Shown: positions 37,539-39,490 of the stretch, one piece after another
Layout: each line of letters begins with the position of its first letter
Numbering within the stretch: position 1 is the stretch's first letter
Virus record (IMG/VR): IMGVR_UViG_2585427971_000012
Reading direction: 5' to 3' (one strand)
DNA length: 44,826 nucleotides
From: a virus
Taxonomy: Duplodnaviria > Heunggongvirae > Uroviricota > Caudoviricetes
The notes under the pieces: model-generated
What the model was told of the DNA's origin: nothing
Databases searched by the model: none
What the model saw: the letters and a program-made list of their open reading frames with translations, nothing else
Program-made: the position numbers and the translations under genes

Positions 37539-38078
37539 TCATATCGCCCCCAGCATGGTAGTAACCATCGCCATCAATGGACCAGCCAGATCTGGGTCCA
37601 CACGAAACATCGACACAATACCTTCACTAATTTCCTTCAGTTTCTGGTGGCGTGGTGCGTTGAGAATGACAGCCTGTTTTGCCTCACTGAGTTCCTTTTC
37701 CATTTCAGCCAACCTAGCCATGAAGCTATCCTGCTCAACCAGGTAACCGCGATATTCCAGCGGTAGTACCGCCAGAATTGCCGGGGTCAGTTCACGCACG
37801 TTATTTCGGTATTTTTCAGAATCGAATTTGTTATCGAGGAAGCGGAACAGCTTCTGGCGTGCACGGCTGACATCATCAGGGAAATCGATGGTGCCGCCGC
37901 CCTGCTCCAGATACTCATTCACAATGAGTGTGGCAACGACATCCTGATTATCTACAGCCGACCAGGCGCGGACGGCATCACGGATTTTTTCGTGGCCTGG
38001 CACCTGTTTTGTTTGAGAACGATTTATCACCGCAGTCGGGCTAAATCCGCTAGTCTGTTGGTATGTAAGTGGTTGCAT
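37539..38078 (-). CDS. CII-position regulator (179 aa), YdaT-like
   Basis: Lies between the Cro-like gene and O on the pR strand; unlike lambda CII (97 aa). Family call is from recalled Rac YdaS/YdaT architecture, not from a motif match. Confidence 0.45.
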   Translation of the reverse strand: MQPLTYQQTSGFSPTAVINRSQTKQVPGHEKIRDAVRAWSAVDNQDVVATLIVNEYLEQGGGTIDFPDDVSRARQKLFRFLDNKFDSEKYRNNVRELTPAILAVLPLEYRGYLVEQDSFMARLAEMEKELSEAKQAVILNAPRHQKLKEISEGIVSMFRVDPDLAGPLMAMVTTMLGAI

Positions 38079-38125
38079 AATTGACTCCTTTAGTTTGAAT
38101 TGACTGTTAAGTTGATTGCTTATTG

Positions 38126-38135
38126 TTAAAGAGCG
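38126..38135 (-). promoter_or_regulatory. boxA-like element CGCTCTTTAA in the nutR position
   Basis: Minus-strand CGCTCTTTAA begins 13 nt after the Cro-like stop, matching the boxA consensus CGCTCTT(T)A and the lambda nutR position. No boxB-type hairpin follows. Confidence 0.4.
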
Positions 38136-38147
38136 TGAAATGGAAAT

Positions 38148-38378
38148 TTAAGCTGCGTTCTTTTCGGTGTGTGGAAACAACTTCGGAAGATCCGGGCGAA
38201 TCTGGTATGCCTTCACTACTCCACCAGTAGCCGTAACAATGCTGCCGACATGTTCAGGGGATACCTTTGCTTTGTTGTGAAGCCACTTATAGACGGCCTG
38301 CTGTGAAACTTCGCAAGCAGCGCCCAGTTTCTTTTGTGAACCAACGATATTGATCGCTGTTTTGATAGCTGGGTTCAT
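38148..38378 (-). CDS. Cro-like HTH regulator (76 aa), YdaS-like
   Basis: Divergent from cI across the operator region; HTH segment QKKLGAACEVSQQAVYKWLHNK; GGAGG Shine-Dalgarno upstream. Confidence 0.7.
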   Translation of the reverse strand: MNPAIKTAINIVGSQKKLGAACEVSQQAVYKWLHNKAKVSPEHVGSIVTATGGVVKAYQIRPDLPKLFPHTEKNAA

Positions 38379-38482
38379 AACAACCTCCGTGGTTAATTTG
38401 AATCAAGATTAAAACTATGGTTGTTTTTAGTCAACAACCATTTTCGTTTGATGGAATAAAACCTTGGTTGTACATTTGGACT
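38379..38482. promoter_or_regulatory. Rightward operator/promoter region (OR with divergent pRM/pR) containing three related 14-bp sites
   Basis: Seen directly: ACAACCATAGTTTT (minus, 38411..38424), AACAACCATTTTCG (38433..38446), ACAACCAAGGTTTT (minus, 38458..38471); the first two form a 9-bp-arm inverted repeat ATGGTTGTT/AACAACCAT. Confidence 0.55.
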
Positions 38483-39172
38483 ATGAAAACAACACTCTCA
38501 GAAAGACTTAAAGAAGCCAGATTAGCGCGAGGCCTTACACAAAAGGCGCTTGGGGATTTGGTCGGGGTTAGCCAGGCTGCTATTCAGAAAATCGAAACAG
38601 GGAAAGCTAATCAAACAACTAAAATCGTGGAGATCGCGAACGCTTTGGGTGTGCGCGCAGAATGGTTATCTTCTGGCGTTGGAAATATGTCAGACAGTAC
38701 AGTGCAACCAATACAATCAACTGTCAGCCATTCCAAATACTTCAAGATTGACGTTCTTGATATAGAAGTCAGTGCTGGGCCGGGAGTCATCAACCGTGAG
38801 TTTGTAGAAGTTCTACGCTCGGTTGAGTACTCGTTTGACGATGCTCGTCACATGTTCGATGGTAGGAAGGCGGAAAATATCCGCATCATTAACGTGCGTG
38901 GTGACAGCATGTCAGGAACGATCGAACCAGGTGATCTGCTGTTCGTTGATATCACAGTTAAATCTTTCGACGGTGATGGTATCTATGCGTTTCTGTACGA
39001 CGACACAGCCCATGTAAAGCGCCTGCAAATGATGAAGGATAAGCTGCTGGTCATCTCTGATAACAAAAGCTACTCACCGTGGGACCCGATCGAGAAAGAC
39101 GAGATGAACCGGGTGTTCATCTTCGGTAAGGTTATTGGGAGCATGCCGCAGACATATAGGAAGCATGGGTAG
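38483..39172 (+). CDS. cI: CI-type repressor with HTH N-domain and S24 (LexA-like) autopeptidase C-domain (229 aa)
   Basis: From the ATG at 38483: MKTTLSERLKEARLARGLTQKALGDLVGVSQAAIQKIETGK (HTH); C-domain with GDSM (Ser) and VKRL (Lys) of the S24 dyad. Track ORF starts 22 codons upstream. Confidence 0.9.
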   Translation: MKTTLSERLKEARLARGLTQKALGDLVGVSQAAIQKIETGKANQTTKIVEIANALGVRAEWLSSGVGNMSDSTVQPIQSTVSHSKYFKIDVLDIEVSAGPGVINREFVEVLRSVEYSFDDARHMFDGRKAENIRIINVRGDSMSGTIEPGDLLFVDITVKSFDGDGIYAFLYDDTAHVKRLQMMKDKLLVISDNKSYSPWDPIEKDEMNRVFIFGKVIGSMPQTYRKHG

Positions 39173-39293
39173 TACCAATTAAAAATTATCAACTGGGCAT
39201 TGTGCTCATTCAGTAAAGAACTAATTCCTATCTTTGCTCTAGGTAGTAATATTAAGCCACCGCAATAATATCTTTACCTAACGGCGTAAGAAT

Positions 39294-39320
39294 CCCGGTC
39301 ACCGTGCCGGGTTTTCTTTT
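39294..39320 (+). terminator. Candidate intrinsic terminator downstream of cI
   Basis: CCCGG(39294..39298)/CCGGG(39307..39311) stem around TCACCGTG, followed by TTTTCTTTT. Confidence 0.45.
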
Positions 39321-39436
39321 GCCCTCCCCTCATCACACACACCGTTAAAAAAACCACCATAACCTCGCTTCAGTTATCGCTATGCGATTCAAGTCACAAA
39401 ATAAATCCATCCTAAATACAACCAGTTATATCTAAA

Positions 39437-39490
39437 ACAACCAATAAAACAACTTTTGTTGTTGACGATAAAACAACTATAGTTTTAAAT
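39437..39490 (+). promoter_or_regulatory. Leftward operator/promoter (OL/pL): three operator sites overlapping a candidate sigma70 promoter
   Basis: Seen directly: ACAACCAATAAAAC (39437..39450), ACAACTTTTGTTGT (39449..39462), ACAACTATAGTTTT (39473..39486) share the ACAAC core with the OR sites; TTGACG (39462..39467), 17-nt spacer, TTAAAT (39485..39490). Confidence 0.5.

Follow-up and report, generated by a model that had tools for sequence, protein, structure and literature searches.

The IMG/VR virus record IMGVR_UViG_2585427971_000012 (Caudoviricetes), whose 44,826 nucleotides are referred to below as the window, contains an immunity region at positions 37,539–39,490, which very probably encodes a CI/Cro switch with 434-like 14-bp dyad operators in a lambda-like layout, along with a separate phi80-type CII. 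The region is an ordinary lysis-lysogeny on/off switch of a common Escherichia coli lambdoid prophage. Its repressor gene, cI (38483..39172, plus strand), codes for a protein of 229 amino acids (aa) with a 434-like helix-turn-helix (HTH) N-domain and an S24 autocleavage domain. The divergent cro gene (38148..38378, minus strand; 76 aa, YdaS/P22-Cro-type HTH) heads the pR operon and is followed by a gene for a 179-aa protein of the YdaT family in the cII position (37539..38078, minus strand). The original prediction, made from the letters of the DNA alone, had described a hybrid of an S24-type CI and a Rac-type Cro/CII pair acting on six related sites, three at OR and three at OL.

Operator dyads and the proteins predicted to bind them

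The operator unit is predicted to be a 14-bp inverted repeat, A(C/A)AAC-N4-GTT(G/T)T, which is well supported for OR1, OR2, and OR3 between cI and cro and for OL1 and OL2 at pL. The pentamer ACAAC/GTTGT occurs 2.2 times per kb window-wide and was found in four copies in the 104-bp OR interval and in five copies in ∼76 bp at OL, an enrichment of ∼20-fold in both intergenic intervals. Perfect dyads numbered four in the 44.8-kb window (38411, 38458, 39449, and 39473), compared with an expectation of 0.30, and all four lie at OR or OL; none of 100 dinucleotide shuffles reached four, a statistic that is partly circular as the pattern was derived from the same sites. Allowing one mismatch added 38380 and background matches elsewhere. 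Repeat finding paired OR sites with OL sites as inverted copies, most closely 38409–38427 with 39470–39488 (95% over 19 nt). The cores of pR and pL are near-identical, GTTGTTGAC(T/G)-N4/5-ACAACYATAGTTTTAA, and both OR1 and OL1 read ACAAC-yatr-GTTTT toward their own promoters. The presence of 14-bp dyads at both operators is in agreement with the earlier claim that OR and OL share one operator family with a specificity unlike that of lambda.

Orthologous loci provided independent support for the dyads as the probable operators. Scanning of species-representative genomes with the CI N-domain yielded 51 loci, 49 of which were usable. The same recognition helix (SQAAIQKIETGK) is encoded by five loci, in Kosakonia oryziphila, Klebsiella grimontii, Enterobacter quasiroggenkampii, Providencia alcalifaciens, and a Symbiopectobacterium metagenome-assembled genome. 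Dyads were found at the aligned OR positions in 5/5 of these and at OL in 4/4 loci whose OL lay within the fetched DNA, so that together with this prophage six loci were compared at OR and five at OL. Comparison of the loci showed complete invariance at half-site positions 1 and 4, near-invariance at 3 and 5, C or A at position 2, and free variation in the central 4 bp.

At OR, the site OR1 (38411..38424) is a perfect match reading ACAAC cata GTTTT toward cro, with half-sites that are kept and a centre that varies in the six loci. OR2 (38434..38447) reads ACGAA aatg GTTGT toward cro and agrees at 8/10 positions, having one consensus half; the deviant half ACGAA and the consensus half are both kept in 6/6 loci, with the centre changing from aatg to tata. 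OR3 (38458..38471) is again a perfect match with its half-sites kept in 6/6 loci around five different central tetranucleotides (caag, tgtg, catg, ttca, and tacg), and its single variable half-site position stays G or T. A candidate fourth site on the OR side, ORx (38380..38393; ACAACCTCCGTGGT), matches at 9/10 positions and overlaps the Shine-Dalgarno sequence of cro. It scores 9–10/10 in 5/6 orthologous loci and is perfect in Providencia (AAAACCTCGGTTGT); it may represent a genuine fourth operator lying on the ribosome-binding site of cro, which at the same time confounds its conservation. At OL, the site OL2 (39449..39462) is a perfect palindrome, ACAACTTTTGTTGT (10/10), kept in five loci with a variable centre, and OL1 (39473..39486; ACAAC tata GTTTT) is a perfect match kept in five loci at a constant 24 bp from OL2. 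At OL3 (39418..39431), the left half-site ACAACCA alone is conserved, the right half being A/T-rich; ACAACCA is invariant in five loci and lies 31 bp from OL2 (11 bp more in Providencia).

The sites had originally been read as six 14-bp elements in the same orientation, each pairing an ACAACC/ACAACT core with an A/T-rich second half, three at OR and three at OL. The shared ACAAC core does hold at both operators, and ACAAC(C/T) is indeed present on the plus strand at 38380, 38434, 39418, 39437, 39449, and 39473, with OL3 having such an appearance in 5/5 loci. However, two of the best OR sites (38411 and 38458) carry ACAAC on the opposite strand, the 3′ halves are conserved GTT(G/T)T with the variable part confined to the central 4 bp, and 434-family repressors bind dyads. 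Moreover, the element at 39437 is not conserved in 3/4 orthologous loci. A core-plus-A/T unit is consequently improbable, and the tripartite arrangement stands for OR1–OR3 and for OL1 and OL2, with OL3 reduced to a half-site. Of the two intervals originally proposed for motif discovery, 38379–38482 and 39430–39495, the second leaves out OL3 at 39418.

The dyads track the recognition helix of CI, SQAAIQK. In 5/5 loci with this helix vs. 0/44 with other helices, the 160 bp upstream of cI contained at least two perfect dyads, and the five SQAAIQK loci account for 19 of the 20 found in 248 kb; these figures describe an association and not a probability, the five loci being homologous rather than independent samples. 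The association persists across two CI C-domains, as two of the loci (L007 in Enterobacter, and L009) carry a different S24 domain. Loci with other helices have other repeats at the same aligned positions.

The helix of Cro, SQQAVYK, mirrors that of CI. Similar matching was observed for each immunity type compared: SQAAIQK/SQQAVYK in this prophage, AQPTIWR/AQPTVWR in PhiR68_2, and QQSIEQ/QQSIQL in phage 434. It is this matching of the CI and Cro helices within each type that points to CI and Cro as the likely binders of the dyads. Both this type and the PhiR68_2 type have a YdaS-type Cro scaffold with differing helices, and it is thus the helix, not the scaffold, that tracks the operator. Cro always accompanies this CI N-domain and these operators, also in the five other genera, and on this comparison belongs to the CI/operator module.

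Another regulator, either the YdaT-type CII or a host protein, might in principle be the one for which the dyads are targets, as Rac YdaT has operators between racR and ydaS to which it binds (PMC11879457). The dyads nevertheless persist in loci with a lambda-type or unrelated CII, they are missing from PhiR68_2 although its YdaT-type CII is the same, and the known YdaT boxes (TTGATT-N6-AATCAA) are unrelated to them, which makes this explanation highly improbable compared with binding by CI and Cro. That the repeats are artefacts of composition or of promoter elements is scarcely credible, for although both intervals are A/T-rich promoter DNA in which a −35-like TTGAC overlaps GTTGT, the shuffles fail to reach the observed count, the half-sites are kept across genera while centres and flanks diverge, and the dyads co-occur strictly with one CI helix, other immunity types carrying different repeats at those positions.

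CI, Cro, and the predicted layout of the switch

The reading of CI as a LexA-like S24 repressor was supported by profile searches, which gave matches to HTH_3 (5.4e-13) and Peptidase_S24 (PF00717, 1.2e-18), and by the presence of the autocleavage residues Ala98-Gly99, Ser142 (in GDSM), and Lys179 (in VKRL). UmuD′ aligns with CI residues 136–218. The best match of the N-domain in the Protein Data Bank (PDB) was the 434 repressor (1per, E 4.5e-9), with 434 Cro second, and CI shares 29% identity with full-length 434 CI over 205 aligned residues. Closer relatives of CI with 72–82% identity (PhiR68_2, Salmonella SPLA1b, and Klebsiella phage 6 LV-2017) were considered for footprinting and set aside, as they have in common the C-domain only; with a different N-domain and different operators, they can be used only as negative controls.

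We would place the start of cI at ATG 38483 and not at the upstream ATG 38417 of the GenBank annotation, because this ATG and the next four bases (ATGAAAA) are invariant in 11 aligned loci and the longer frame is broken by a 1-bp indel upstream of it, in DNA that contains the operators. The GenBank start at 38417 falls inside OR1. A Shine-Dalgarno sequence upstream of the cI ATG is absent in every orthologue, and the cI mRNA is presumably leaderless, starting at ∼38483.

The assignment of the 76-aa protein as YdaS-like was upheld by a profile match to YdaS_toxin (PF15943, 4e-17; 62 bits against a cut-off of 30). The match to P22_Cro (8e-5) was under the family cut-off. Cro also matches phrog_35, annotated as transcriptional repressor, and its relatives in the PDB are the Cro proteins of Xylella prophages (3bd1, Xfaso Cro, 7e-4). 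Identity to Rac YdaS is 30%.

The promoters were predicted from their position relative to the operators. For pR (minus strand), the putative −35 hexamer is TTGACT (38429..38434), found as TTGACT, TTGATT, or TTGACA in the six loci, and the putative −10 hexamer is TAATCT (38406..38411), 17 bp away, with TATTCT, TATTAT, and TAATAT in orthologues. At pL (plus strand), the predicted −35 hexamer TTGACG (39462..39467), with TTGAC invariant in five loci, sits relative to O2 and O1 as TTGACT does at pR, and is followed after 17 bp by a weak predicted −10 hexamer, TTAAAT (39485..39490), which overlaps the end of OL1. For pRM (plus strand), a −35 hexamer TTGATG (38448..38453) is predicted directly after OR2, kept as TTGATG or TTGAAT, and, by analogy with lambda pRM, a −10 hexamer TACATT (38471..38476), 6 nt before the A of the cI ATG.

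On this layout, CI would act as a dimeric repressor that binds A(C/A)AAC-N4-GTT(G/T)T through its 434-like HTH N-domain and carries a LexA-type self-cleaving C-domain. OR1 would lie between the −35 and −10 hexamers of pR, OR2 would overlap the pR −35 hexamer by one base and abut that of pRM, and OR3 would lie between the two pRM hexamers. Given this placement, CI at OR1 and OR2 would switch off transcription of cro-cII-O-P and stimulate its own leaderless transcript, and at high CI the filling of OR3 would turn cI down. OL1 and OL2 would repeat the OR1/OR2 geometry over pL, which reads into kil-gam-bet-exo, with the weak OL3 half-site 31 bp upstream. Cro, with a recognition helix matching that of CI on a YdaS/P22-Cro scaffold, would bind the same sites and favour lytic growth, and the phi80-type CII of the YdaT family would serve as an establishment regulator not tied to this specificity. 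RecA-stimulated cleavage of CI at Ala98-Gly99 would bring about prophage induction. The gene families, the positions and statistics of the sites, and the patterns of co-occurrence and conservation are established by the analysis; we infer the identity of the binding proteins, the promoter hexamers and leaderless start, the cooperativity, and the targets of CII.

Several points weigh against this scheme, in addition to the partial circularity of the dyad statistic and the relatedness of the five SQAAIQK loci. OR2 and OL3 depart from the consensus. A simple sigma-70 scan recovered none of the predicted promoters, and their −10 hexamers (TAATCT, TTAAAT, and TACATT) are weak. No convincing CII-dependent pRE was located, and no binding or transcription experiment on this specificity was found in the searchable literature. 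Literature searches with the operator strings gave nothing relevant, and those with the PhiR phage names gave no immunity-group description. The sole candidate from the promoter scan (39503..39476) is antisense and was not used.

The likeness to phage 434 is considerable. Both systems have 14-bp dyads with outer ACAA...TTGT, ACAAC-N4-GTTGT being formally a subset of the ACAA-N6-TTGT of the annotated 434 record. The spacings are 23, 24, 31, and 24 bp here and 22, 23, 31, and 23 bp in 434, with OL3–OL2 at 31 bp in both; the central bases are variable and A/T-biased, and the C-domain is of S24 type. As in the 434 annotation, the predicted pRM −35 hexamer follows directly after OR2 and the pL −10 hexamer overlaps the end of OL1. 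In contrast, operator position 5 is fixed as C here and is C in 0/12 half-sites of 434, and position 2 is relaxed to C or A. 434 Cro is a paralogue of the CI N-domain, whereas Cro here is built on the YdaS/P22-Cro scaffold. OR1 is downstream of the pR −10 hexamer in the 434 annotation but between −35 and −10 here, and 434 cI has an annotated ribosome-binding site, whereas cI here looks leaderless. The system appears to have a 434-like way of working but not the 434 specificity.

This agrees with the recognition helix. Crystallography of the 434 complex has shown that Gln28 contacts A1. When CI was compared with helix 3 of 434, Gln28 (position 1) and Gln17 were found to be kept, and Gln29, Ser30, and Gln33, the residues through which 434 reads bp 2–5, were replaced by Ala32, Ala33, and Lys36, respectively, so that from the 434 recognition set Gln28-Gln29-Ser30...Gln33, CI retains Gln28 alone. 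The change of Gln33 to Lys is seen in both CI and Cro alongside the fixed C:G at position 5, and that of Gln29 to Ala alongside the relaxed position 2. A Lys-guanine contact at operator position 5 may be the counterpart. The prophage would represent a natural variation on 434 recognition that retains the operator geometry and the Gln-A1 contact but has Lys for Gln33 and C:G at base pair 5. With the Gln/Lys pattern copied onto a different Cro scaffold, it offers a compact test case for helix-to-operator rules.

In its predicted layout, the region shares with lambda the divergent cI and cro genes, a tripartite OR, OR1 between the pR −35 and −10 hexamers, OR3 inside pRM, OR2 beside the pRM −35 hexamer, a leaderless cI, and a second operator set at pL. 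It differs in that the operators are 14 bp here and 17 bp in lambda, the families of the CI N-domain, Cro, and CII are unrelated, and neither rexAB nor an N gene after pL is present. The immunity type leaves the understanding of the lambdoid switch unchanged: the operator specificity is new and the mechanism is well known.

The CII-position protein and its candidate targets

The 179-aa protein had been described as YdaT-like, which was supported by profile searches (YdaT_toxin, PF06254, 9e-30, 103 bits against a cut-off of 21; phrog_163, CII-like transcriptional activator, 6e-67) that placed it in no unrelated family. Its residues 28–106 align with the structure of CP-933P YdaT (PDB 8bt1, 7e-4) and residues 29–125 with 3c4r. 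A POU-like HTH domain and a long tetramerisation helix are features expected of the YdaT/phi80-CII family. The closest named relative is phi80 cII, with 66% identity over the full length and an identical predicted recognition helix (SRARQKLFRFLDN). The closest known systems also include the cII genes of mEp237, HK639, and HK225. As in phi80, the gene is located between cro and an O-like replication gene. It overlaps O by 4 nt, and hence there is no room for the oop-like RNA that follows cII in phi80, where, moreover, the annotated CI operators are 19 bp long.

The resemblance to Rac (with the repressor RacR) and CP-933P (with PaaR2) lies in a Cro-like YdaS and a CII-like YdaT downstream of a divergent repressor. 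The differences are that the repressor here is a 434-like HTH joined to an S24 domain and not of the RacR/PaaR2 type, that toxin-antitoxin cargo is missing, and that the immunity region has no full YdaT box. RacR and PaaR2 are not known to carry an S24 domain. The gene positions and families of the original prediction were thus correct, but a Rac-type pair was not found, identity being 30% to Rac YdaS and 36% to Rac YdaT against 66% to phi80 cII. Nor does the region form a Rac-type unit (RacR-YdaS-YdaT), as the repressor is of S24 type and Cro and CII are not inherited together.

The same CI N-domain, Cro, and operators occur with a lambda-type CII (Phage_CII, PF05269) in the Kosakonia and Klebsiella grimontii prophages, L005 and L006 (1.2e-35 and 8e-13). 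In the other same-helix loci, the CII slot holds a YdaT-type protein (L007) or other proteins (L008 and L009). Conversely, YdaT-type CII proteins with 95–97% identity are encoded in PhiR68_2, 4A7, D2, and Perceval beside another CI/Cro specificity. Since the same Cro occurs with lambda-type CII and the same CII with other CI/Cro, the YdaT-type CII is, judging from these comparisons, a separate, freely assorting module, and YdaS-type Cro and YdaT-type CII are not a pair. The term "toxin" in the family names YdaS_toxin and YdaT_toxin is historical. The status of the region as a special hybrid could not be sustained: the arrangement is ordinary lambdoid mosaicism, and YdaS and YdaT have already been published as equivalents of Cro and CII (PMC5917428, PMC8630535, PMC9986795, PMC11879457).

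YdaT tetramers bind the box TTGATT-N6-AATCAA in CP-933P, the Rac box being ATGATT-N6-AATCAA, and YdaT activates a reverse, PRE-like promoter (PMC8630535, PMC9986795, PMC11879457). In Rac, activation of the reverse promoter proceeds from a box lying across the start codon of ydaT (PMC11879457). A search of 37400–39700 for the full TTGATT-N6-AATCAA box found none, and boxes with up to three mismatches occurred there at chance level (22 found vs. 23.7 expected). A YdaT box in the cro-cII spacer was considered as pRE and rejected, as the spacer contains direct half-boxes only (TTGACT at 38081 and 38100, TTGATT at 38112), which are not significant. Homology between the window and PhiR68_2 ends at the cII start codon, leaving no upstream site common to these two cII-sharing phages. 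An imperfect palindrome, TTGAGAACGATTTATCAC, with a conserved rare ATA codon in it, lies at 38013–38030 inside the 5′ end of cII. Both phi80 and the Enterobacter locus keep its half-sites but have a changed spacer, and the palindrome may be regarded as a weak candidate for the box of a CII-dependent pRE. In PhiR68_2, a perfect TTGAT-N8-ATCAA palindrome was noticed over the cro start codon (2373–2390), beside the same YdaT-type CII in another immunity type; it is absent from the relatives L003 and L004, whose annotated CII proteins are much shorter.

The only perfect YdaT box in the window, TTGATTATTCATAATCAA, was found at 27407–27424, and 0/100 shuffles gave one. It is non-coding and lies upstream of a ybcN/ninB-like gene, with a hairpin nearby at 27366–27390. 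The half-sites recur at the equivalent position of phage 82 around a different spacer, and the phi80 version there is TTGATA-N6-TATCAA. Each of the three palindromes overlaps the −35 hexamer and spacer of a conserved TTGATW-17-CATAAT promoter, TTGATT-17-CATAAT in this prophage, that reads into the ybcN/ninB-to-Q region, and the phage 82 record has putative −35 and −10 elements annotated at or beside these positions. The segment is carried by all 16 phage-collection records with a cII of at least 95% identity to this one, which are close relatives of each other. A direct target of phi80-type CII outside the immunity region, at 27407–27424, is suggested by these observations, though we consider it rather unlikely. 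If it were one, CII would occupy the promoter and thereby gate expression of both the nin genes and the late antiterminator, and the role of lambda paQ would be filled via a different mechanism.

Prophage identity, distribution, and gene context

The ORF listing and profile searches showed the window to be a complete lambdoid prophage, running from tail genes through terminase and lysis genes to Q (25152–25841, PF06323) and ending with the integrase at the right. P precedes O (36523–37542), followed by the immunity genes and kil-gam-bet-exo, which matches the lambda order exo-bet-gam-kil ... cI-cro-cII-O-P. The stretch 37400–39700 is 100% identical to Escherichia phage PhiR34_1 (PV340559.1), whose record labels these genes cI, Cro, and cII. 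Positions 38100–39520 are carried, at a threshold of at least 80% coverage, by 1047/5426 complete E. coli genomes, mostly with at least 99% identity; the carriers include O157:H7 and O104:H4 strains, and several isolated phages also have the region. The immunity region is thus common and already sequenced and annotated. With this immunity type in about one in five complete E. coli genomes, an operator code would make superinfection immunity groups predictable from sequence.

The first gene of the pL operon is kil (39684..39974, plus strand; phrog_294 Kil, 1.2e-38), with gam, bet, and exo downstream; the PhiR34_1 GenBank record instead calls an overlapping frame, 39733–39966, a hypothetical protein. 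No N-like ORF was found between pL and kil. An HK022-type put RNA after pL gave no Rfam match, similarity to the HK022 pL leader was absent, and the fold of the pL leader is unremarkable (z = −1.18). One perfect boxA consensus, CGCTCTTTAACAA, is present at 38123–38135 on the minus strand, 12 nt past the cro stop codon, with neither a boxB hairpin after it nor a second boxA in the pL leader. Antitermination after pL of the HK022 put or the N/nut type was therefore rejected, this lone boxA after cro being the sole nut-like element.

An intrinsic terminator follows cI at 39294..39321 (plus strand; CCCGGTCACCGTGCCGGG then TTTTCTTTT). The spacer between cI and pL (39173–39417) is empty here and carries inserts of 1–2 kb in PhiR68_2, IdasGreatGrand, and PhiR47_2 (annotated GevT/GevA), constituting a hot spot for accessory genes equivalent to rexAB. 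Four or five TTACCTGATTCGGGTAA-like iterons within O, at 36985–37100, presumably mark the replication origin. Between P and the nin genes (27690–31055 and 31310–35575), the prophage carries an adhesin, an IS66 element, and an esterase. The adhesin (31310–35575, minus strand) is a 1421-aa inverse autotransporter with IAT_beta and Big_1/Invasin_D3 repeats, three of which, of ∼130 aa each, are near-identical. The corresponding place in PhiR34_1 is occupied by ren, an SMR pump, and YbcK.

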